Of a DNA stretch of 64,000 nt, positions 4,055 to 63,349 are shown piece after piece. A program made the position numbers and the translations under genes. The stretch covers positions 161,603 to 225,602 of the forward strand of contig CAVTWB010000010.1 in the NCBI GenBank assembly GCA_963738245.1. Reading direction: 5' to 3'. This DNA is from an uncultured Verrucomicrobiae bacterium. GTDB lineage: Bacteria; Verrucomicrobiota; Verrucomicrobiia; Limisphaerales; UBA11358. Below the pieces are notes generated by a model. The model was not told the origin of the DNA, did no database searches, and saw nothing but the letters and a program-made list of their open reading frames with translations. Numbering within the stretch: the stretch's first letter is position 1; each line of letters opens with the position of its first letter.

Positions 4055-5243
4055 ATTTTGGTTTTCCCAGCAGCGACGAAAGTTTCTCATCCGCCTTCGA
4101 CAAATCCACCGGCTTCGATTCCGGTGCAGGTTTGGCCGTTTGCGGGGCTGGCTGGCTGGCCTGTGCCAGCGCTTCGAGTTTTTTGGCATCCACTTTCGGC
4201 GCGGCCGTTGGCAACACCGGCTTGGCTTCAACGGCCACCGGCGCAGCCTGCGGCAGCGACAGCTTTTCCAGAACTTTCTCCGCCGCCGGTTTTGCCTCCA
4301 TGCCGCCGCGCAAATATTCCGCCACGCGCGCCCCGGATTGCGCGCCGCTGGTTTCATGCGCCGCCGTGCGCGCCTTCGCCACCACGTCGAGAAAATAGCT
4401 CTCGAGATTCTGCGTCGGATTGTCCACGCGCACTTCGCCGGTCGAAACGTCCTTGCGGATGATTTCCAAAACCCGTTCCAAAGTTTCGCGCGGAAGCACC
4501 GGCGTGGTGATTTGCAGCGTGTCCGGCGTCGCCAGCAAATCCTTCAGCGTGCCGGCGGCCTGGATTTTTCCGCCATAATAAATCACCACGCGGTCGCAAA
4601 CATCTTCGACATCGGAAAGCAGGTGGCTGCTCAAAATCACCGTCTTGCCGCGCCGCGCCAGCGCGATGATCAAATCCTTCACCTCACGGCAGCCAATCGG
4701 GTCAAGCCCGGCGGTCGGCTCGTCGAGAATCACCAGATCCGGATCATTGATGAGCGCCTGCGCCAGCCCGATGCGGCGCTGCATGCCTTTGGAAAATTCG
4801 CCGACCGCACGCGTCTGCGTTTTGCCGAGGCCAACCATTTCCAGCAATTGTTCCGCGCGACTGTCGCGCTCGCCTTTCGAGAGATGAAACAGGTTTCCGA
4901 AAAAATCCAGCGTCTCGCGCGAATTAAGATAGCGATACAAATATGATTCTTCCGGCAGATAGCCGATGCGCGATTTCGTCTGCACATGTCGTGGCGAATG
5001 GTCGAAGACCTCGATGTGACCCTTGGTCGGATTCAGCAAGCCGAGCAGCAGCTTGACCGTCGTGGATTTGCCGGAACCGTTCGGGCCAAGCAATCCGAAA
5101 ACTTCGCCGCGCCGGACTTCAAAATCCACATTGTCCACCGCGCGCGCCTTCGGGCGGTTCCAGAAATCCTTGAAGACTTTGGTCAGGCCACGAACAGAAA
5201 CAACAACTTCTCCGTTAGATTTCGGATGCGACTCGGCGGACAT
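4053..5243 (-). CDS. ABC transporter ATP-binding protein with a low-complexity A/P/K-rich C-terminal tail
   Basis: Walker A GPNGSGKST, signature-like FSKGMQRR, Walker B LVILDEPTAGLD. The tail reads ...AKPAAEKVLEKLSLPQAAPVAVEAKPV... Confidence 0.9.
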   Translation of the reverse strand: MSAESHPKSNGEVVVSVRGLTKVFKDFWNRPKARAVDNVDFEVRRGEVFGLLGPNGSGKSTTVKLLLGLLNPTKGHIEVFDHSPRHVQTKSRIGYLPEESYLYRYLNSRETLDFFGNLFHLSKGERDSRAEQLLEMVGLGKTQTRAVGEFSKGMQRRIGLAQALINDPDLVILDEPTAGLDPIGCREVKDLIIALARRGKTVILSSHLLSDVEDVCDRVVIYYGGKIQAAGTLKDLLATPDTLQITTPVLPRETLERVLEIIRKDVSTGEVRVDNPTQNLESYFLDVVAKARTAAHETSGAQSGARVAEYLRGGMEAKPAAEKVLEKLSLPQAAPVAVEAKPVLPTAAPKVDAKKLEALAQASQPAPQTAKPAPESKPVDLSKADEKLSSLLGKPK

Positions 5244-54001: not shown

Positions 54002-54891
54002 ATGTTAAAACGCAAAGAACTGCCCGTTGCGCTCACCATCGCCGGCTCGGACAGCGGCGGCGGCGCGGGCGTTCAGGCCGATCTGAAAACGTTTGCCGCG
54101 CTTCGGCGTCCACGGCACCAGCGCGATTGCCTGCCTCACCGCGCAAAATCCAAAACAGGTTTTGGCGGCCGAGCCGTGTTCGCCCAAAATGCTGCGGCGG
54201 CAGATCGAAGCCGTGTTTGCCGAACTGAAACCGGCGGCGGTGAAAACCGGAATGTTGTTTTCGGTGGAAAACATTTCCGTCGTCGCGGATTTCTACCGCA
54301 ACTCGAAACTGAAAACTAAAAACTCAAAACTGATCGTGGATCCGGTCATGGTATCCACCAGCGGCGCTAAATTGCTCCAGCCGGCGGCGGTAAAAATCCT
54401 GACGGGAAAAACTGCTGCCACTGGCCGCGCTCGTCACGCCGAATCTGGACGAGGCGGAAATTCTGGCGGAACAAAAAATTTCGTCGCCGGAGGATTTGCG
54501 TGCCGCCGCGCGGAAAATCCAGGCGCGTTTCGGCTGTGCGGTTTTGGTGAAAGGCGGCCACCTGAAAAATTCCCGCGAGGCAATTGACGTTTTCTTCGAC
54601 GGAGAAACGGAACTGCTGCTGTCCGCTCCGTTTGTGAAGGGCGTTTCGACGCACGGCACCGGCTGCACTTATTCCGCCGCGATTTGCGCCGCGCTGGCGC
54701 TCGGCCACGATTTGCCGCACGCGGTGGAGATCGGGAAAAATTTCATCACGGCAGCTATCGCCGGCAGCTTCCGCATCGGAAAACATTTCGCGCTCGGATA
54801 TTTTCCGCTCAAAGATCCGGCCAGCTCAACTGGTAAAACTGGTTCGCATTTGTCGCGTTCAGGAAAATGTAATTGCTGCCGTTCGCGATGA
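54002..54891 (+). pseudogene. thiD: hydroxymethylpyrimidine/phosphomethylpyrimidine kinase ThiD, two +1 frame breaks as assembled; true 3' end uncertain
   Basis: [24 protein letters not shown] | [15 protein letters not shown]...KTGML...IVDPVMVSTSGAKLL... | LLPLAALVTPNLDEAEIL...VLVKGGHL...GTGCTYSAAICAALA. There is an extra base near 54101-54105 and one in the A-run at 54407-54411. Confidence 0.85.
54300..54332 (+). repeat. 33-nt four-heptamer element E1, in-frame in thiD
   Basis: AACTCGAAACTGAAAACTAAAAACTCAAAACTG encodes [11 protein letters not shown] directly before the conserved IVDPVM. Confidence 0.85.
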
Positions 54892-56563: not shown

Positions 56564-57307
56564 ATGTCCGACACGCTCGTCGTCAACGAAGTCTATTTGA
56601 GCCTGCAGGGTGAAAGCACCTTCGCCGGGCTGCCGTGCATTTTCATCCGGCTCACCGCGTGCGACTTGCGCTGCTCCTACTGCGACACCGCCTACGCCTT
56701 CACCGAAGGCAAAAAGAAAACGCTCGCGGAAATTCTGGCGGAAGTCCGTCGGCAGGCCGCGCCGTTTTTGAATTCAAAATTAAATATTCAAAATTCAAAA
56801 CTGCCCTTGGTGGAACTGACCGGCGGCGAGCCGCTGCTCCAGAAAAATTCCCTGCCGCTGATGAAATCGCTCTGCGACGACGGCTTCACCGTTTTGCTCG
56901 AGACCAGCGGCGCGCATGACATTTCCAAAATTGACCCGCGCGTCCGCCGCATCATGGACTTGAAATGCCCGTCCAGCGGCGAAGTTGCCCGCAACCGGTT
57001 TGAAAACATTGCGCACCTGAAAGCCACGGACGAAATCAAATTCGTCATCGGCACGCGGGAGGATTATGATTGGGCCAAGCTGCAAATTGCCGAGCACCAG
57101 CTTGCTTCCGTCTGCCCGCTGCTGTTTTCCTGGGTGCATCCGCTCACGCCGGCGCAGCAGAGCAAGGTGCTCAAAAAAGTTCCCGCCGGGCACACGCCGA
57201 TTTCCCGCCGGGAGCTCGCGGAAAAAATCATCGCCGACGCGCTGCCGGTGCGTTTCCAAATCCAGCAGCACAAAATCATCTGGCCGCCGGAACAGCGCGG
57301 CGTTTAG
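56564..57307 (+). CDS. queE: 7-carboxy-7-deazaguanine synthase QueE (radical SAM)
   Basis: VNEVYLSLQGESTFAGLPCIFIRLTACDLRCSYCDT...ELTGGEPLLQ... Confidence 0.88.
   Translation: MSDTLVVNEVYLSLQGESTFAGLPCIFIRLTACDLRCSYCDTAYAFTEGKKKTLAEILAEVRRQAAPFLNSKLNIQNSKLPLVELTGGEPLLQKNSLPLMKSLCDDGFTVLLETSGAHDISKIDPRVRRIMDLKCPSSGEVARNRFENIAHLKATDEIKFVIGTREDYDWAKLQIAEHQLASVCPLLFSWVHPLTPAQQSKVLKKVPAGHTPISRRELAEKIIADALPVRFQIQQHKIIWPPEQRGV
56771..56803 (+). repeat. 33-nt four-heptamer element E2, in-frame in queE
   Basis: AATTCAAAATTAAATATTCAAAATTCAAAACTG encodes NSKLNIQNSKL directly before PLVELTGGEP. Confidence 0.85.
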
Positions 57308-57388: not shown

Positions 57389-57714
57389 ACCACAACAGAG
57401 ACTTTTCAATTACTCCGCGACTACGAATCGCGCAACATCGTGTTCATTGAGCCCGACGGCTCGTGGCCGATTGTCTGGGAACGCGCCAAGGGCGTTCACG
57501 TCTGGGATGCGGAGGGCAAAAAATATCTGGATCTGACCGCCGCGTTCGGCGTCGCCGCCGCCGGCCACGCGAATCCAAACGTCGTTCGCGCCGGGACAGA
57601 AACAGATGGCCAAACTGCTGCACGCGATGGGCGATGTGCATCCGCACGCGCTCAAGGCCGAACTCGCGCGGGAATTGAGCCGCATCACTTTCGAGCGGTG
57701 GAGCAGCCTGTCAG

Positions 57715-57747
57715 AACTCAAAACTAAAAATTCAAAATTCAAAACTG
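57715..57747 (+). repeat. 33-nt four-heptamer element E3, in-frame in the aminotransferase but in a different codon phase
   Basis: AACTCAAAACTAAAAATTCAAAATTCAAAACTG is read as (E)LKTKNSKFKT(G) directly before KVIFSNSG. Confidence 0.85.
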
Positions 57748-58448
57748 GAAAAGTGATTTTCTCCAACTCCGGTTTCGAAGCCGTCGAATCCGCGCTGAAA
57801 ACCGCGATGCTCGCCACCGGCAAACGCGGCGTCATTGCGTTTGAGGGCGCGTATCACGGCCTCGGCTACGGAGCACTGAACGCCACGCACCGCGAACATT
57901 TCCGCAGCCCGTTCCGCTCGCAACTGCGCGAATTTGGAAGTTTTGTGACGTTTCCGAATCAACCGGCACAGCTCGCGGCAATTGAAAAAGACATCCGCCA
58001 GATTTTCCGCCGCAAGAAAATCGGCGCGATTCTCGTCGAGCCGGTGCAGGCGCGCGGCGGCATCAACATCCCGCCGACGGAATTTCTGCCGCTGCTCCGC
58101 AAACTTTGCGACAAATTTGGCGCGTTGCTCATCCTCGACGAAATTTACACCGGCTTTGGCCGCACCGGCAAATGGTTCGCGTGCGAGCACAGCGGCGTGG
58201 TTCCTGATTTGATCTGCCTCGGCAAGGCGCTGACCGGCGGTTTTCCGCTGTCGGCCTGCGTCGGCCGCGCGGATTTGATGGACGCCGCGTGGCCGACCTC
58301 GACCGGCGAGGCGATTCACACCAGCACATTCCTCGGCCATCCCGTCGGCTGCGCGATGGCGCTGGCGCAAATCTCTGAAATCCGCCGGCTGAAACTTTGC
58401 GAACGCAGCGCGGTGCTCGGAAAATTTCTTGTTGAACGAGCTTGCTTC

Positions 58449-58483
58449 AATTCAAAATTCAAAATTCAAAATTCAAAATTCTG
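58449..58483 (+). repeat. 35-nt variant E4 of the four-heptamer element, coinciding with an aminotransferase frame break
   Basis: AATTCAAAATTCAAAATTCAAAATTCAAAATTCTG. Compared with the canonical ...CAAAACTG end it has 2 extra nt (TT at 58479-80). Confidence 0.8.
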
Positions 58484-58702
58484 CTGCGCGGCCTCGGTTT
58501 GATGGCCGGCGTGGAATTGACATTGCCCGACGGCAAGCCCGCCACCGAAACGGCGTTGCGCGCGATCAAAACACTGTTGCATCGCGGCTACATTTTCCTG
58601 CCGGAAGGCGAATTTGCCAACGTCATCAGCTTCACGCCGCCGCTGACAATTACCAAAGTCGCAGCTTGCAAAAGCCGTTGCCGCGCTGGCGGAGGTTTTG
58701 CA

Positions 58703-59632
58703 ATGACGCTCACCGAAATGCGCGCGTTGCTGGCGAAACGCGACATCCAACTGACGCGCTCGCTCGGCCAGAATTTTCTCCACGACGGCAACCAACTCCG
58801 GCGCATCGTGGACGCGGCGGAAATCACGCCGGCGGATAAAATTCTGGAAATCGGGCCGGGGCTGGGGCCGTTGACGGAATTGCTTTTGGAAAAAGCCGGC
58901 GAGGTGCTGGCGATTGAAATGGACGCGCGGCTGGTGGATTTTTTGTGCGAGCGGTTCGGCACGGAACAACGGAATCGCCGATTTGCTGGTCGGACGCAGT
59001 TGAGCCGGCCAGCCAGAAAAGCTGTCCGAGCCGGAGCAGAGTGCGGCGTTCCATCTATTGCACGATGACGCGCTGGCATTTCTCAAGCGCGAGCCGCGCG
59101 ACTGGAGCGATTGGAAGCTCGTGGCGAACCTGCCGTATTCCGTCGCCTCGCCGATTTTGGTGGAACTCGCCGCCGGCCCGCGCGCGCCGAAGATGATCGT
59201 CGCCACGCTGCAACTGGAAGTCGCGAAGCGGCTGATGGCGCAGGCGGACGACGACGATTACGGCATCCTGACGCTGCTGGTGCAGCTTGATTTTGAGCCG
59301 CGCGGCAGCTTCAAGATTCCGCCGGAATGTTTTTTCCCGTCGCCGGACGTGGATTCCGCGTGCGTGTGCCTGCGTGCGCCGCGCGACGCCGCTGCTGCCG
59401 GAAAATCTCCGCGCCGACCTTCGTAAAAATCGTCAAGCGCGGCTTCTCGCAACGGCGCAAGATGATGCTGAAATTGTTGAAACAGGATTGGGCGGCGGAC
59501 AAACTGGCGGCCGCGTTTGCCGAATTAAAAATCTCGCCGCAGGAACGCGCGGAGAAATTGAGCTTGGAACAGTTTGTGGCGCTCACGCAATTCTTGAGTA
59601 GCCACAACTTTATGAATAAAAAATTGTTGTAG
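58703..59632 (+). pseudogene. rsmA: 16S rRNA (adenine1518/1519-N6)-dimethyltransferase RsmA/KsgA, multiple frame breaks as assembled
   Basis: MTLTEMRALLAKRDIQLTRSLGQNFL...ILEIGPGLGPLTELLL | ..FHLLHDDALAFL...LVANLPYSVASPIL...FFPSPDVDSACVCL | ..PLLPENL.. | FVKIVKRGFSQRRKMM... Confidence 0.82.
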
Positions 59633-60285
59633 ATATGGAAATCACAGGCATGAAGCATGTCGTAATCGAACGATCACTTGCCGATCTGTTGAATGGAGCT
59701 CTAAAGACAAACCAAGTGCTTGGCGACAAGCTTGATTCAGAAATCCAAACCCTGAATACCGTGCATTCCATTGAATCAATGGAAAGATTTTAGAAGATCG
59801 AATCTCTCCGGTGTGCTCAAACTCATGCAGTCATCATCAAAGTTGCTGAAATTAGTGGAGTCGAAGCTCTCGCAAATTTAATCTTGGACATTTAAATGCG
59901 ACTGGAGAACTAGTTGAGCACGTGGATACGTTAAGCGACTTGGAGCAATTGGTGGTCCAAACCAGAAATTGATTCTGAAAACAATATGAATTGCGCAAAA
60001 GGTGAAACACTTTACGTGAAATTAAAACTAGCTTCATAAATTAAGAAGAGTTGTACCCAAAGCGAAATTCGATAAAGAGTGAAATAATCTATTAAGGAAA
60101 TCGCCGAACGCACTTCGGGCATGGAGCTAAGTCTGAATATTGTGGCGTTCCCAGCCGAATCGGTTAAGAATTTGGAATTATGATAAGAGCATGGCTGCGC
60201 GTTTATTTTAGAAACAGCGACTTTAGTAATACATTTATACTTGAAAATTCAAAAGACGAAAGCGCAATTAATCCAAGTGTAAAAA

Positions 60286-60350
60286 ATGAGCGAAGAAATT
60301 TTTGACATCGTCAACGAGCGCGACGAGGTGATTGGGCAGAACACGCGGCG
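60286..60350 (+). repeat. direct repeat DR1: truncated duplicate of the nudix 5' end
   Basis: 63 of 65 nt are identical to 60950-61014 (ATGAGCGAAGAAATTTTTGACATCGTCAACGAGCGCGACGAGGTG..GGGCAGAACACGCGGCG). Confidence 0.9.
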
Positions 60351-60389
60351 GATGCTTGATTTATTCTGCAACTGCCATAATTTGACTGC

Positions 60390-60599
60390 ATGAAGAACTG
60401 GATTGTCGCTGACCCGGAGCATTTGGGCGGAAGCCCGCGTGTGCGCGGCACGCGCATTTCCGTGGCGCTCATCCTGGAGTCGCTCGCCGCCGGCCTGTCG
60501 GTCGCCGACATCGTGGATGCGTATCCGAGCCTGACCGAGGAATCGGTGCGCGGCGCGCTGGCGGAACTGGCGCATCAGAAAGAACTGCAACCGGCGTGA
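60390..60599 (+). CDS. DUF433-family putative antitoxin
   Basis: ADPEHLGGSPRVRGTRISVALILESLAAGLSVADIVDAYPSLTEESVRGAL is the DUF433 (COG2442) pattern. Confidence 0.8.
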   Translation: MKNWIVADPEHLGGSPRVRGTRISVALILESLAAGLSVADIVDAYPSLTEESVRGALAELAHQKELQPA

Positions 60600-60925
60600 A
60601 AATCCTGCTGGACGAGAACCTGCCGCGAAAACTCGTCGCCGCGTTGCGCGCGGAAGGCCACGAAGTCGAGTCGGTCATCACGCTGCGGATGCAGGGCTTG
60701 GACAACGGCAAACTCTACCAATTCGCGATCCAAAATTTCGAGATCTGTTTCACGCGCGATTTTGGTTTTATCAACAATGTTCGTCAGGGCAAATCGCCGG
60801 AGAAATTCAAATTGCTCCGCGTGACGCTGGAGCAAAAGCCGCAGGACGAATTCGTCAGGGATTTCATCGCCGCATTTCGCGCGGCGGATTTGAAAAAGTT
60901 TCAGCACGGCGACGACTGGCCGTAA
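60596..60925 (+). CDS. DUF5615 / PIN-like (Mut7-C-like, COG4634) putative toxin
   Basis: MKILLDENLPRKLVAALRAEGHEV... It has a 4-nt overlap with the DUF433 gene, the usual partner. Confidence 0.75.
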   Translation: MKILLDENLPRKLVAALRAEGHEVESVITLRMQGLDNGKLYQFAIQNFEICFTRDFGFINNVRQGKSPEKFKLLRVTLEQKPQDEFVRDFIAAFRAADLKKFQHGDDWP

Positions 60926-60949
60926 ATTTTATTTCCACAAAACTGCCGC

Positions 60950-61465
60950 ATGAGCGAAGAAATTTTTGACATCGTCAACGAGCGCGACGAGGTGGTCGGG
61001 CAGAACACGCGGCGCGAGGTTCATGCGCGCGGGTTGTGGCATCGCGCGGTGCATGTGCTGGTGTTCAATGCGCGCGGCGAGGTGTTTCTCCAGAAGCGCT
61101 CGATGAAAAAGGACATCGCCGCCGGCAAATGGGATTCGTCGGCGTCCGGCCATCTGGACAGCGGCGAGGCTTACGACGCGTGTGCGGTGCGCGAGGTGCG
61201 CGAGGAGATCGGACTGAACATTGTGACGACAGACAGCCGCACGCGGCTTTTCAAGATTGACGCGCGCAAGGAGACGGGCTGGGAATTCTGCTGGATTTAC
61301 CGCTGCGAAAACGAAGGGCCGTTCGTTTTGCATCCCGATGAAATCGAGACGGGCGCGTGGTTCGCGCCGGACGCGGTGACGAAGTGGGTGAACGAAAAGC
61401 CGCAGGATTTTGCGAGCGCGTTTGTGCTGATCTGGAAAACATTCGTTAAATCGTTGAAGTGTTGA
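60950..61465 (+). CDS. Nudix hydrolase
   Basis: Nudix box GKWDSSASGHLDSGEAYDACAVREVREEIGL. The 5' 65 nt form DR2. Confidence 0.85.
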   Translation: MSEEIFDIVNERDEVVGQNTRREVHARGLWHRAVHVLVFNARGEVFLQKRSMKKDIAAGKWDSSASGHLDSGEAYDACAVREVREEIGLNIVTTDSRTRLFKIDARKETGWEFCWIYRCENEGPFVLHPDEIETGAWFAPDAVTKWVNEKPQDFASAFVLIWKTFVKSLKC

Positions 61466-61515
61466 ATTGTTATATCGCCCGCAAAATTTCGATTCAACGA
61501 TTCAACAATTTAACC
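61444..61515. repeat. inverted pair of tandem-word arms overlapping the nudix 3' end
   Basis: cgttaaatcgttgaagtgttgaattgtt ... tcgattcaacgattcaacaatttaacc. The left arm encodes the last residues FVKSLKC*. Confidence 0.6.
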
Positions 61516-61569
61516 ATTCAGCGATTCTTCCACACTTTACTTGCGGCGAAAATGGAGTAGTTATTTCCC

Positions 61570-62196
61570 ATGCAAAATTATTTCGTTCCGATTGTGGTGG
61601 AGCAGACCGGGCGCGGTGAGCGGAGCTGGGACATTTATTCCCGCCTGCTCGTGGACCGCATTCTTTTCCTCGGCACGCCGGTGGATGACAACGTCGCCAA
61701 CATCATCATCGCGCAGCTTTTGTTTCTCCAGATGGCCGACCCGAAGAAGGACATCCATCTCTACATCAATTCGCCCGGCGGCAGCGTCACGGCGGGGCTG
61801 GCGATCTACGACACCATTCAATACATGACCTGCGACGTGAACACCTATTGCGTCGGGCAGGCGGCGAGCATGGGCGCGGTGCTGCTGGCGGCGGGCACGA
61901 AGGGCAAGCGTTACGCGCTGCCGAATTCCAACGTCATGATCCACCAGGTGCTCGGCGGCGCCGAAGGGCAGGCGAGCGACGTGGAAATTCGCGTGAAGCA
62001 CATGCTCAAGCTCAAGCAGACGCTGAACGCCATCCTCTCGAAACACACGGGCAAGCCGGTGGAACAGGTGGAGAAGGATTGCGACCGCGACAATTTCATG
62101 ACGGCCGACGAAGCGAAAGCCTACGGCCTCGTGGATCACGTCGTGCAGTCGCGCCGGGAAATTCCCGGCGCGGAAAAAAGCTCCGTGGTGGTTTGA
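61570..62196 (+). CDS. clpP: ATP-dependent Clp protease proteolytic subunit
   Basis: [31 protein letters not shown]...[17 protein letters not shown]...[11 protein letters not shown]...IHQVLGG. Confidence 0.95.
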
Positions 62197-62253
62197 GAAA
62201 ATCAGGTTGTCAGTCGCGCAGCCAATGAAAGCGGCGTAGTTGGGGCAATTTTC

Positions 62254-62590
62254 CCCTGCGCGCGGGGTAAATTCACCTTCGTGCGGGCATATTTCGTTCC
62301 CGTGCGGGCATCATTTACCCCCGTGCGCCTTGTTTTCGCCTCCATACAGGTGTTTTTCACTCCCCATCGCCTGTTTTCGGCTCCGTGCGGGGCATTTGCT
62401 GGTTCGTGCGGGCGTTTTTCACTCCGTGCGGGCCATCGGCCCGTCCGTGCGCCCGTTTTTCGGTTCGTGCGGAGGATTTGCCGCTCCGTGCGGACCAACT
62501 CCCGCTCCGTGCGGGCGGCCTCGGCTGCCGAACAGCCATTTCCCGTTCCGTGCGGCTGTGCAGAAAAATATTGCGCCCGTCCGCAACCGG
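62254..62590. repeat. tandem array A2: about 16 slots of 20-21 bp (CCGTGCGGGC dyad core plus T-tract)
   Basis: GTGCG cores at 62281, 62302, 62323, 62385, 62406, 62426, 62447, 62467, 62488, 62509 and 62550 (spacings 21, 21, 62, 21, 20, 21, 20, 21, 21, 41). Example units: ttcgtgcgggcgtttttcac, tccgtgcgcccgtttttcgg. Confidence 0.88.
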
Positions 62591-62662
62591 CGTATAAATC
62601 ATTTCTCAATCACTTCGCTCGTTCAGGAAGGAAAACTTAAGCAAATCGAAACGCACACTTCT

Positions 62663-63349
62663 ATGAAACAAAAAATCATCAGTCTTCTAGCGACCTTCAA
62701 ATCCACCGACGCCTTCGGCATCAAATACGCTGCCGACTATCCTGCCGGCAGCGTCGGCGCGACGCAATTCGCCCTCGTTCACGCCGCCGTGCCGCAGACC
62801 AGCACCCTCGGCGCCGCGCAGGTTTCCAGTTCCGAACAAATTGACAGCGCCGTGCTGGGCAAGGTCGCCGGACGATTGCATCTGCGGCAGGACATGCTCG
62901 GCATCACCGACGCCGTTCATTCCCTCGTCCTGCTCGGCACGCCGGGACTCGACGGAAAATTTCACATGCCGCGCAGCGCGGGCGACCAGGCCCTGCTCAA
63001 TTCCGCCCGCGCCTTTGCTGCGGACGCCCCGGCCTTCTCCGCGCCATTCATCAGCGTCGGCCTCGCCGCCGATTTCATCGCCCATCTCACCAGCGACATC
63101 GCCGATTTTGAAACCGTCATTGGCAGCAAAAACACCGGCACCGGCACGGAAGCCGCCGCCACCGGCGGCATGGACGACACCGCGCAAAAAGCCGCCGTGG
63201 CGTTGCATGTGCTGAACACCGTCGTGAAGAACACCTGCAAAAACGACCCGGCTAAGCTCGCCGAATGGGCCACCGCCAGCCATGTCGAAAAACACACGCC
63301 CGTCCCGCGCGCCAAACCGGCTCCGGCTCCGGCGGCGACACAGAAATAA
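62663..63349 (+). CDS. hypothetical protein (228 aa), alanine-rich, no signal peptide
   Basis: ATG-initiated ORF starting 73 nt after array A2, with protein-like composition. The track ORF from 62240 reads through the repeat array and was trimmed. Confidence 0.55.
   Translation: MKQKIISLLATFKSTDAFGIKYAADYPAGSVGATQFALVHAAVPQTSTLGAAQVSSSEQIDSAVLGKVAGRLHLRQDMLGITDAVHSLVLLGTPGLDGKFHMPRSAGDQALLNSARAFAADAPAFSAPFISVGLAADFIAHLTSDIADFETVIGSKNTGTGTEAAATGGMDDTAQKAAVALHVLNTVVKNTCKNDPAKLAEWATASHVEKHTPVPRAKPAPAPAATQK

Follow-up and report, generated by a model that had tools for sequence, protein, structure and literature searches.

A predicted toxin–antitoxin cassette bracketed by a 65-base duplication of a nudix gene start in an apparent uncultured Verrucomicrobium

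Insertion with long target duplication is a mode of entry described for restriction–modification (RM) gene complexes (Nobusato et al. 2000, Gene 259:99, as cited by later authors). Its mechanism was left unresolved by Furuta, Abe & Kobayashi (2010; PMC2853133), who suspected DNA breakage by the restriction enzyme. That study required direct repeats of more than 30 bp that are present once at the related empty site, an insert shorter than 20 kb, the lack of an integrase or transposase, and a repeat that is not a tRNA or att site. The locus considered here, in a 64-kb stretch of DNA that is referred to as the window, has each of these properties, with a repeat of 65 bp, single-copy empty sites and a 599-bp insert. 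It resembles the RM insertions in that a small addiction-type unit with no linked mobility gene lies between repeats that exceed 30 bp and vary in length. Gene fusion at the junction, reported for RM systems (PMC2853133), also has a parallel in an LMW-PTP-like gene that occupies this slot in relatives. The differences lie in the cargo, which here is a predicted type II toxin–antitoxin (TA) pair, and in the host, an uncultured Verrucomicrobium. Moreover, unlike what the breakage idea implies, the scar is found here around unrelated toxins (PIN-like, HicA and ParE-like), and the mosaic described below points to donor homology. A review from 2014 that covers both RM and TA systems (PMC3874152) ascribes the long-target-duplication mode to RM systems only, and literature searches turned up no type II TA cassette reported with such a duplication; the scar is thus of a type known from RM systems, with TA cargo for which no earlier report was found.

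A second point of comparison is provided by integration with one-ended homology. In Escherichia coli, single crossover is the main route by which such substrates integrate (Amarir-Bouhram et al. 2011; PMC3240628), and in most products duplications of the homologous segment, 109–950 bp long, flank the insert (PMC3240628). Homology-facilitated illegitimate recombination was described by de Vries & Wackernagel (2002) and Prudhomme et al. (2002), as cited in PMC5361080. The window would share with these events one homologous anchor and one non-homologous join. They are, however, laboratory events with engineered substrates, whereas the window represents a natural one, and its duplication (65 nt or shorter) is at the low end relative to the 109–950 bp seen in E. 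coli.

The type VI secretion effector–immunity arrays of Vibrio cholerae, and Rhs and CDI orphans, are displacement arrays of polymorphic toxin/immunity modules (Kirchberger et al. 2017; PMC5361080). They have in common with the window a conserved anchor segment, a displaced resident piece that stays behind as a fragment, and a mosaic structure spread by homologous recombination. In those arrays the upstream segment is the anchor, and immunity genes accumulate on the downstream side. At the present locus the anchor, which is the nudix 5′ end, lies downstream instead; what has been displaced is a dead gene start on the upstream side, and the cargo is an intracellular TA pair. The TA cassettes of integrons, such as the Vibrio superintegrons, are similarly compact, sit in a slot with varied cargo, and are thought to stabilise repeat-flanked DNA (PMC2654758). 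In contrast to integron cassettes, the present locus has no integrase, attI or attC, and its repeats are variable and derived from the target.

Architecture of the repeat and the predicted TA pair

The features of the locus are listed in Table 1; L-numbers denote loci in relatives that were compared with the window. A preliminary description of this DNA had reported a near-identical duplication of the nudix 5′ end. The repeat finder returned the same pair as a single two-copy family (63/65 identical, 97%; spacing 664), and the two mismatches were also as described (left GTGATTGGG, right GTGGTCGGG). No other local direct repeat in the window is as long or as similar between its copies, and its local-alignment score of 120 for this pair, compared with a best of 28 from 200 shuffled queries, excludes a chance origin. 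The repeat begins exactly at the ATG and finishes at GCGGCG, and the DNA outside both copies is unrelated. It is apparent that the cassette is bracketed by a genuine 65-base duplication of the nudix start.

Table 1. Features of the rsmA–clpP interval (positions in the window)
Feature	Position	Strand	Basis
rsmA/ksgA, left conserved flank of variable slot	58742..59632	+	Pfam RrnaAD
AT-rich (about 39% GC) resident upstream region, recipient haplotype, without intact gene	59633..60285	.	composition profile
Left copy: truncated nudix 5′ end, codons 1–21 plus two bases, Ile16 (ATT)	60286..60350	+	
35-codon ORF MSEEIFDIVNERDEVIGQNTRRMLDLFCNCHNLTA, running from truncated nudix start into cassette upstream element	60286..60393	+	ORF table
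Conserved upstream element of cassette, CTTGATTTATTC..CCATAATTTGACTGC, promoter/operator-like (by conservation)	60351..60389	+	
DUF433 (COG2442) predicted antitoxin, 69 aa	60390..60599	+	PF04255, 4e-20
DUF5615 PIN-like predicted toxin, 109 aa, GTG start	60596..60925	+	PF18480, 4.4e-14
24-nt spacer, toxin stop to nudix ATG, specific to nudix context	60926..60949	+	
Right copy: 5′ end of intact nudix, Val16 (GTC), presumably imported	60950..61014	+	
nudix nt 1–260, donor-clade tract	60950..61209	+	identity to relatives
Nudix hydrolase gene (YfcD/Idi-like), 171 aa, intact	60950..61465	+	Pfam NUDIX 4.7e-21
clpP, right conserved flank	61570..62196	+	Pfam CLP_protease 3.7e-82

The 599-bp insert consists of the predicted TA pair and short flanks. 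The ORF table and Pfam agree with the earlier statement that DUF433 and DUF5615 genes alone separate the copies, and the ORF table also contains the 35-codon ORF whose TGA was said to overlap the DUF433 ATG. The right copy does restore an intact nudix gene, as had been claimed, since alignments with orthologues span residues 1–169 of the encoded protein; its NCBIfam match to YfcD (1.6e-26) is below the cut-off. The neighbours of the cassette are housekeeping genes. Compared with L019, L084 and L016, rsmA carries two +1 insertions, and in the window it is read in three frames. No integrase or transposase was found within 15 kb upstream of the cassette or in the 3 kb of the window downstream, and no tRNA was found in the 50–64 kb portion of the window. 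The reported absence of a nearby recombinase is upheld. Rfam yielded nothing relevant.

The antitoxin gene comes first, and its stop codon overlaps the start of the toxin gene by 4 nt (GTGA). The match of its product to PF04255 scored 71.8 bits against a cut-off of 23.6. The protein has 99% amino acid identity to those of L005, L081 and L082, and a weak match to 2GA1. The toxin, in addition to its PF18480 match, hit PIN_10 at 1.6e-5 (25.4 bits, just under the cut-off of 26.2). Its residues D6, T53 and D55, which, going by PIN-like domains in general, would be those of the active site, are invariant among 13 homologues with identities down to 23%. NCBIfam had no model for either TA protein, and a PDB sequence search gave weak matches only, with no close solved structure. 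The DUF433/DUF5615 pair co-occurs at about 25 loci in varied contexts and is predicted to be a type II TA pair of the PIN-like/DUF433 (VapBC-like) kind, for which toxicity and addiction would be expected from family membership alone. The PIN–COG2442 (DUF433) VapBC-like systems (Makarova et al. 2009, PMC2701414; Synechocystis vapBC10, PMC3834315) likewise have the DUF433 gene first, overlapping a small PIN-like nuclease gene, and are abundant and mobile. Unlike them, the window toxin falls in the DUF5615/Mut7-C-like branch, known here from sequence.

Two nudix alleles and a mosaic at the rsmA–nudix slot

The order rsmA–nudix–clpP is kept in most of 80 relatives, with a gap between rsmA and nudix of 2 to 2619 nt. 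The cassette precedes nudix at only three of the 80 genome loci, and remnants are present in two more. The nudix-start repeat is single copy in all 80 relatives except for a partial second copy in L004, and the empty sites that the preliminary description had proposed to seek are common, being present in most of the Verrucomicrobia relatives. DNA resembling the AT-rich region upstream of the left copy was found only in the rsmA–nudix interval of L056 (67% over 641 nt); there it runs straight into nudix and represents an empty-site haplotype. Other cargo varies by locus and includes ParE, the LMW-PTP-like gene, TIR_2, AAA_21 and NOV_C, in a scan of a hand-picked sample. The repeat was also considered as an att-like conserved site and rejected as such, the third-position identity of nudix nt 1–65 being 0.53–0.64, compared with 0.41–0.68 along the gene.

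Both differences between the two copies lie within codon 16, which reads ATT (Ile) on the left and GTC (Val) on the right. Across 81 orthologues this codon is ATC in 33, GTC in 20 and ATT in 15. The right copy is identical at all 65 positions to L084, L004 and L006; DUF433 lies upstream of nudix in the first two of these (with the full pair in L084), and L006 has no cassette. No exact match to the left copy was found among the 81 orthologues, the best being 63/65.

The relationships of the flanks differ from those of the insert and its anchor. For rsmA and clpP the nearest relatives of the window are L019, L010 and L016 (90–94%), whereas nudix nt 1–260 is 97–98% identical to L001, L005, L006, L009 and L011 and only 88–92% to L019, L010 and L016. 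The donor-type tract runs on from the insert into the nudix anchor, and the flanks reverse the pattern. In comparison with L005, the upstream element, DUF433, DUF5615, the spacer and nudix nt 1–260 are 92–98% identical, and the flanks 84–89%. The 24-nt spacer matches that of L005 at 23 of 24 positions and does not follow this cassette outside the nudix context (L082, L083, L085 and L087), which argues that the incoming DNA derived from a donor with the cassette in a nudix context. Taken together, the presence of two different natural alleles and of a donor tract reaching about nt 260 points to homology-assisted recombination with DNA of a relative. The proposal of insertion by target duplication is therefore upheld in part: the bracketing duplication is real, but on these same two grounds it is unlikely to be a duplication in the transposon sense.

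A within-genome origin was also weighed, in which a local duplication or slippage took place in a genome already carrying the TA–nudix arrangement and two point mutations then arose in the left copy. The 97% identity of the copies, which are the same outside codon 16, is as such a course would leave them, and two transitions after an intragenomic duplication are a possible alternative source of the codon 16 difference. However, an extra rearrangement would be needed to bring nudix nt 1–65 upstream of the cassette beside L056-type DNA. The second change would have had to fall in the same codon (a chance of about 3%, or 2/64) and to recreate the allele of 15 relatives, and the incongruence between flanks and nudix would be left unexplained. 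We regard this origin as highly improbable.

The upstream element and the 35-codon ORF

In ten cassettes with unrelated upstream DNA, column identity was 0.89 at positions −35 to −1 relative to the DUF433 ATG, compared with 0.39–0.46 beyond −46; conservation thus extends over 35–40 nt and reaches background past about −45. Because it is kept across unrelated contexts, this sequence suggests that the cassette carries its own regulatory element. A strict sigma-70 scan of positions 59500–61700 called no promoter, the upstream element included, so the label ‘promoter’ for that element is one of conservation only. Matches in a terminator scan were at chance level.

The preliminary description had assigned a different role to the left copy, with the cassette driven by the nudix promoter and translation start and the truncated nudix ORF serving as a coupled leader for the antitoxin. 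The overlap of the ORF’s stop with the DUF433 start (ATGA at 60390–60393), the lack of a Shine–Dalgarno sequence before the DUF433 ATG and the negative sigma-70 scan are all compatible with such a role. Furthermore, the LMW-PTP-like gene uses a duplicated nudix start in L004, L084, L024 and L035, where MSEEIFD..NER is fused in frame, so co-option of the nudix start has occurred at this locus. Nevertheless, we consider this model unlikely for the cassette, whose own upstream element of about 40 nt is present in every context. An intact leader is absent or unrecognisable where the same cassette precedes nudix in L005, L059, L081, L084 and L098, as it is in all non-nudix contexts, and the equivalent truncated ORF in L082 stops 44 nt before the DUF433 ATG. 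The second DUF433 codon encodes Lys or Asn (ATGAAG or ATGAAC in close cassettes), which places a TGA within the ATGA. Since this TGA is intrinsic to the DUF433 start, an ORF entering in that frame stops there, and the overlap is roughly a one-in-three accident. Neither the use of the nudix promoter and start nor the coupled leader role is thus supported by the comparison with relatives. The 35-codon ‘leader’ is judged to be a by-product, and the cassette to be expressible from its own element.

Recurrence of the scar and its probable origin

Other DUF433/DUF5615 cassettes with duplicated targets, for which the preliminary description had suggested a search of the genome, were found in relatives (L082, L088, L120 and L063). 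In L082 the same cassette is situated at a ThiF/MoeB gene, with a 147-nt duplication made up of that gene’s promoter and first 94 nt. Duplications in the range of 43–113 nt were found in the other three, and also around HicB/HicA at hisC (L091), a ParE-like cassette at the 3′ end of rsmA (L067) and RHH-type cassettes (L056 and L062). The overall range outside the window is 37–147 nt. Many direct repeats in relatives were excluded as dispersed intergenic, paralogous or tandem (for example in L010, L016, L025, L030, L032, L036, L059, L064 and L080). Upstream of the cassette, L005, L081 and L084 have candidate degenerate left copies where one would expect them; these scored no better than shuffled controls and were not counted.

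These analogous duplications come from many independent assemblies of different projects, and their copies are 83–97% identical, a degree of divergence that speaks against an artefact of assembly or consensus, such as a chimera of two co-occurring strains with and without the cassette. The source is an apparent uncultured Verrucomicrobium, the frameshifts in rsmA and an aminotransferase gene relative to relatives suggest that consensus quality may be imperfect, and an exact-sequence look-up found neither the Nudix nor the DUF5615 protein on record elsewhere. However, the junction of GCGGCG with GATGCTTGA occurs in neither parental arrangement and offers an assembler no long shared word. An artefact therefore appears scarcely credible.

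Integrative elements typically restore their target gene through direct repeats of some tens of base pairs, and the slot gathers varied cargo in the manner of an array. The repeats might accordingly be viewed as an attL–attR pair, left by a small element that lacks its own integrase and is moved in trans by a tyrosine or serine recombinase, or as marks of an integron-type cassette. The ThiF-derived repeats around the same cassette in L082 argue against any fixed attachment site, repeat lengths vary, and no attC-like palindrome or GTTRRRY core was seen at the junctions by eye. With no integrase in the 15 kb upstream and 3 kb downstream, and no tRNA, site-specific integration is very unlikely.

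In ten cassettes the left ends are clustered, lying about 10 nt or less from one another, and in several unrelated contexts the right end is 0–7 nt from the toxin stop. [quoted passage not shown] The locus shows no inverted repeat pairing the cassette ends, no transposase and no fixed short duplication. Several observations are at odds with de novo insertion: the two copies are different natural alleles, donor-type sequence continues past the repeat to about nudix nt 260, and the nudix-specific 24-nt spacer moved along with the cassette. In addition, L099 holds about 270 nt of unrelated DNA within its duplication, duplication length varies from 37 to 147 nt, and the scar is the same with toxins of different biochemistry. 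The L099 fragment contains an HVHLV motif and may be transposase-like. De novo insertion is, in our estimation, rather unlikely.

The best explanation of the locus, and one we hold to be reasonably probable, is a recombinase-free, homology-assisted import from a relative. The order of events that we infer would begin with the import of a fragment in which the cassette and its own upstream element were followed by the 24-nt spacer and by at least about the first 260 nt of nudix. The right end of this fragment would have been resolved by homologous recombination inside the resident nudix. Its left end, just outside the −35-like CTTGA of the cassette, would have been joined illegitimately to resident nudix nt 65. 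At the junction itself, nudix ...ACGCGGCG meets cassette sequence that reads ...GCGCGG immediately before CTTGA, with an extra GATG in the window that the model does not account for. GC-rich strings of the GCGG type on both partners are at most suggestive of microhomology at this join. Joining may have occurred by homology-facilitated illegitimate recombination or by a Campbell-type single crossover of a circularised fragment. The product would consist of resident upstream DNA, resident nudix nt 1–65 (a dead start), the cassette, and an intact nudix with an imported 5′ half; the left copy would be the resident nudix start, displaced by the import. An insert between direct repeats could be looped out again, but loss of the TA pair would presumably be counter-selected, so that scars of this kind would persist mainly at addiction modules.

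Neither the donor nor the recipient genome was recovered among the relatives compared. The nudix 5′ half is near-identical across a whole group of relatives and may therefore stem from a separate recombination, in which case a 65-nt Campbell circle would have been enough. Purely random illegitimate joining does not predict the clustered left ends of the ten cassettes. This clustering could reflect a defined cassette end, or trimming combined with promoter selection.

A tentative extension of homology-assisted import, to which we give distinctly less credence, is that TA cassettes act as recombinase-free ‘hitch-hiking’ units. Recombination between the repeats would release a circle carrying the cassette and one target copy, the circle would re-enter the same gene of a relative by single crossover, and it would be kept because its loss is lethal. 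If this is correct, such units would also supply new gene starts (the LMW-PTP-like gene that begins with the nudix start being an example), and a step dedicated to recognising the cassette ends could even be suspected from their tight clustering.

Little is understood of the way chromosomal TA systems spread from genome to genome when no transposase or integrase is involved. This locus and about ten analogues offer a concrete, testable route for TA mobility, which combines homology to a conserved adjacent gene with an imprecise second join, by which 40–150 bp of the target are duplicated, and with addiction as the means of retention. They tie TA mobility to the ‘insertion with long target duplication’ of RM systems, and suggest that the common cause of the RM and TA scars is post-segregational killing and not DNA cleavage. 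The rsmA–nudix interval emerges as a small, well-bounded hotspot for defence and addiction cargo in an abundant group of soil and peat bacteria, at which duplicated gene starts can be recycled as the starts of newly inserted genes.

The duplicated nudix start and the slot it occupies

The two copies of the nudix 5′ end, at 60286-60350 and 60950-61014, were recovered by repeat search as a pair of 65-nt direct repeats with 63 identical positions, the top local direct repeat by length and similarity in the whole 64 kb window. Their local alignment score was 120, compared with 28 or less in shuffled controls. The repeat runs precisely from the ATG to GCGGCG, with no relatedness outside these limits. 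These results bear out the arrangement in the preliminary description, including the left copy opening a 35-codon leader ORF that overlaps the DUF433 gene and the right copy heading an intact nudix gene. Features are listed in the table below.

The gene order, as identified with Pfam, has rsmA upstream and clpP downstream of the cassette and nudix. The DUF433 and DUF5615 ORFs overlap by 4 nt (GTGA), and DUF5615 residues D6, T53 and D55 are invariant across 13 homologues with identities down to 23%. DUF433-PIN pairs form a predicted VapBC-like type II toxin-antitoxin (TA) family (PMC2701414), and one such pair has been tested as a VapBC-like TA system (PMC3834315); TA activity of the present pair is predicted from family membership. 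As described earlier, there is no recombinase nearby: no integrase, transposase or tRNA was found near the cassette, and the repeat search detected no inverted repeats pairing its ends.

A scan with the Nudix protein, using one genome per species, yielded 80 loci, overwhelmingly from uncultured Verrucomicrobia (Limisphaerales/Pedosphaera-like MAGs) by record titles, among which rsmA-nudix-clpP synteny is common. The cassette lies upstream of nudix in only three of the 80: L005 (94% nucleotide identity over 560 nt), L059 (85%) and L004, where DUF433 stands alone before a ParE-type pair. Short cassette remnants are left in L009 and L025. At the other loci rsmA and nudix are separated by anything between 2 nt and 2.6 kb, and the genes adjoining the nudix ATG differ (ParE toxins, LMW-PTP-like, TIR_2, AAA_21/AAA_15, NOV_C). 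Cargo at the four loci tabulated includes TIR_2, AAA_21/AAA_15 ATPase, NOV_C (DUF3883-like) and ParE toxins, and in L011 and L068 the cargo ORFs terminate on the nudix ATG (ATGA overlap). Because both gap and cargo vary, the interval is regarded as a small addiction/defence hotspot between two conserved genes, a slot that behaves as a miniature defence/addiction islet. The AT-rich DNA of approximately 650 nt left of the left copy matched only L056, at 67% identity; since the matching DNA there runs directly into nudix, L056 represents the left side of the window in its empty-site form. The empty sites anticipated in the preliminary description are thus present in relatives.

Several other features of the window were observed. 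An AT-rich motif of 34 nt, GAAYTCAAAAYTAAAWATTCAAAATTCAAAACTG, is repeated within 6 kb. A radical-SAM ORF contains one copy in frame, the class-III aminotransferase gene contains two, and a further one lies shortly before the left nudix copy. It seems conserved, as locus L019 aligns through its positions. Directly past the nudix stop lies an inverted repeat, GTTAAATCGTTGAA ... TTCAACGATTCAAC, probably a terminator or REP-like hairpin; matches to mir-8517 on both strands there were rejected as spurious products of this repeat. The interval from clpP to an ORF with its ATG at 62654 holds some 13 copies of YCCGTGCGGGC at a spacing of about 20-21 nt (TRF periods 21 and 41), with a strong T-over-A skew. 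A longer ORF across this stretch (62240-63349) has no Pfam match, and Rfam returned only a weak CRISPR-DR10 match (E=0.2); the stretch looks like an array of putative protein-binding sites. The frames of rsmA/ksgA and the aminotransferase are disrupted, reflecting either pseudogenes or consensus errors, and consensus quality is therefore uncertain.

Features of the window and of relatives' loci (L numbers, from homology scans, each in its own coordinates)
Feature	Locus	Position	Strand	Remarks
Leader ORF, 35 codons	window	60286-60393	+	Opened by left copy; TGA overlaps ATG of 69-aa ORF
DUF433 ORF, 69 aa	window	60390-60599	+	Pfam 4e-20
DUF5615 ORF, 109 aa	window	60596-60925	+	GTG start; Pfam 4.4e-14; PIN_10 slightly sub-threshold
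nudix ORF, 171 aa	window	60950-61465	+	Starts in right copy; Pfam NUDIX 4.7e-21
AT-rich motif	window	54299-54332, 56770-56803, 57714-57747, 58448-58481, 60231-60264
Inverted repeat	window	61443-61525
YCCGTGCGGGC stretch	window	62270-62560
rsmA/ksgA	window	58742-59632		Three reading frames; single-base insertions at ~59262 and ~59306 vs L019, L084, L016
Aminotransferase	window	57606-58650		Frame change near 58450 relative to relatives
Slot cargo	L011	5420-5998
Slot cargo	L068	5174-5998
Slot cargo	L005	4960-5364
Slot cargo	L004	2049-2375
LMW-PTP-like gene (PF01451)	L004	1166-1538		Upstream of nudix
LMW-PTP-like gene (PF01451)	L084	2126-2491		Upstream of nudix
LMW-PTP-like gene (PF01451)	L024	502-870		Upstream of nudix
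LMW-PTP-like gene (PF01451)	L035	1238-1642		Upstream of nudix
Window-type cassette	L082			147-nt repeat, 93%: promoter region and first 94 nt of ThiF/MoeB gene
Distant DUF433/DUF5615 pair	L088			59 nt of ABC ATPase 5′ region
Another distant DUF433/DUF5615 pair	L120			Last 78 nt of upstream gene, including stop
HicB/HicA pair	L091			55 nt of hisC-like 5′ region
Phd-like + nucleotidyltransferase pair	L091			94-nt repeat
ParE-like pair	L067			76 nt of rsmA 3′ end; also in rsmA-nudix slot
RHH-type pair	L056	10113-10982		43 nt of cytidine/dCMP-deaminase 3′ end
RHH-type pair	L062	9620-10561		113 nt of cytidine/dCMP-deaminase 3′ end, from stop codon
DUF433/DUF5615 pair	L063	9603-10491		92 nt of cytidine/dCMP-deaminase 3′ end, from stop codon
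Cassette + ~270 nt unrelated DNA (HVHLV motif)	L099			Both inside duplicated segment

The upstream element of the cassette and the leader ORF

It had been proposed that the cassette uses the nudix promoter and translation start through a coupled leader. A DUF433 scan of metagenomes supplied further copies of the cassette (88-99% amino acid identity), both before nudix (L081, L084, L098) and in unrelated contexts (L082, L083, L085, L087 and others). In ten cassettes, column identity upstream of the DUF433 ATG is 0.89 over the last 35 nt, 0.65 at -45 to -36, and 0.39-0.46, i.e. background, farther out; the cassette therefore carries its own element. This element (CTTGA...N...ATAATT-like) ends about 7 nt 5′ of the ATG, which has no Shine-Dalgarno sequence, and is putatively promoter/operator-like; a strict sigma-70 scan did not call it. 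No other cassette before nudix has an intact leader, and look-alikes in L005, L081 and L084 are weak, no better than shuffled controls. In close cassettes DUF433 begins ATGAAG or ATGAAC, so the ATGA overlap is supplied by its start and second codon and any ORF arriving in that frame must stop; an analogous truncated ORF in L082 ends 44 nt earlier. The proposal is accordingly not upheld: the leader is judged to be a by-product, although upstream read-through may occur in this genome.

The LMW-PTP-like gene preserves an older event at the window locus. Its N-terminus (MSEEIFD..NER, approximately 37 nt; 30 of 32 identical in L004) is nudix-derived, MSEEIFDTANER / MPVEIFNAVSGR ... being fused in frame ahead of KILFVCSRNRRRS, and orthologues in L036, L037 and L077 are without it. 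Co-option of a duplicated nudix start has thus taken place at this locus, but not for the TA cassette.

Two further likenesses were seen. The region upstream of ThiF/MoeB in L083 (~4540-4600, downstream of the TA genes), AGCTTGATTTATTCATCGAATGCCATA, resembles window 60355-60381, GCTTGATTTATTCTGCAACTGCCATA, which may reflect a common promoter consensus or a fragment moved between contexts. The cassette-nudix spacer of L084 (3165-3250) holds an inverted repeat of about 21 bp, GGAGACGAGGTGACGAGTCTC ... GAGACTCCTCACGTCGTCTCC, half of which also occurs in L059 (3280-3326); this is possibly a small hairpin element.

Origin of the duplication

Codon 16 accounts for both differences between the copies: it reads ATT (Ile) in the left copy and GTC (Val) in the right one. 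The chance of a second random change in the same codon as the first is about 3%. Each version is a common natural allele, codon 16 being ATC in 33, GTC in 20 and ATT in 15 of 81 orthologues. The right copy is identical at 65/65 positions to L084, L004 and L006. The window locus is a mosaic. Its rsmA and clpP are nearest those of L019, L010 and L016 (90-94%); nudix nt 1-260 are 97-98% identical to L001, L005, L006, L009 and L011 and 88-92% to the former three, and from nt 261 onward identity is 86-92% to all of these. Against L005, the upstream element, both TA genes, spacer and nudix 1-260 give 92-98%, the flanks 84-89%. The 24-nt spacer separating the toxin stop from the nudix ATG matches L005 at 23 positions and was not found after cassettes in non-nudix contexts; the imported DNA therefore stems from a genome with the cassette already before nudix, and as such brought nudix homology with it. 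The repeat starts at the ATG because the recipient-like (L056-type) and donor-like (L005-type) haplotypes begin their homology there. Taken together, allele pair, mosaic, spacer and repeat start favour import of DNA from a related genome over target duplication of the transposon kind. Insertion by target duplication, as previously proposed, thus holds as to structure and nudix-derived repeats; a transposon-like mode is unlikely. No genome corresponding to either parent was recovered, and none of the 81 orthologues matches the left copy exactly.

The simplest reconstruction of such an import has two joins, by homology-facilitated illegitimate recombination, a process invoked for other loci (PMC5361080; PMC2884548). 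A homologous crossover would have occurred within nudix, at or past approximately nt 260, and an illegitimate join would have linked resident nt 65 to the left end of the fragment, immediately outside the -35-like CTTGA. A Campbell-type single crossover of a circle bearing the cassette and nudix 1-65 gives the same final structure and has direct experimental precedent in 109-950-bp duplications in E. coli (PMC3240628), but needs a separate exchange of the nudix 5′ half; that half varies little within a group of relatives and may therefore have been exchanged in a separate event. The microhomology at the junction is equivocal. In the ten cassettes the left ends fall within some 10 nt of one another, which could reflect a defined end, or selection and trimming; the extra DNA in the L099 duplication, read as a putative transposase fragment, argues for arbitrary fragment ends.

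Recurrence of the scar around TA modules

Other cassettes flanked by duplicated gene starts, which the preliminary description had envisaged, do exist, for example at ThiF/MoeB in L082 and an ABC ATPase gene in L088; for the TA pairs in the table, the remarks give the duplicated segment that brackets each. The target of the HicB/HicA pair in L091 looks like the hisC 5′ region, judged from its N-terminal sequence, and had no Pfam match. The cytidine/dCMP-deaminase 3′ end is a second slot, with an empty site in L080 (~8170). The nudix-sampled loci are unbiased as to TA; local duplication of unique sequence was identified in five of them (L004, L056, L062, L063, L067), each time around TA modules, with L007 left unclassified. 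Their other direct repeats were set aside as dispersed motifs, paralogous motifs or tandem repeats.

In L086 (4146-4734), a MazE/AbrB-type antitoxin gene lies between two copies of an 82-nt segment made up of the 3′ end of DUF433 and the start of DUF5615, and the DUF5615 toxin is truncated; TA loci are themselves targeted by the same kind of insertion.

The scar pattern corresponds to insertion with long target duplication, known for restriction-modification (RM) systems: small units without mobility genes, variable-length direct repeats of more than 30 bp that are single-copy at empty sites, and junction gene fusions, the mechanism being unsettled (PMC2853133). The cargo here is type II TA; a review of RM and TA systems assigns this insertion mode to RM only (PMC3874152), and no report of it for type II TA modules was found in the literature searches. 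The window locus is also similar to the displacement arrays of T6SS, Rhs and CDI modules, where incoming modules are anchored by a stretch of a conserved gene and the resident stretch stays behind (PMC5361080).

The structural interpretation in the preliminary description is supported; the functional one is not. What is new is the type II TA cargo, in Verrucomicrobia, of an already known kind of insertion. As the scar surrounds toxins of unrelated biochemistry, addiction, i.e. counter-selected loss by repeat recombination, is inferred to be a likelier shared property than DNA cleavage. Its recurrence makes the event moderately interesting and experimentally testable.
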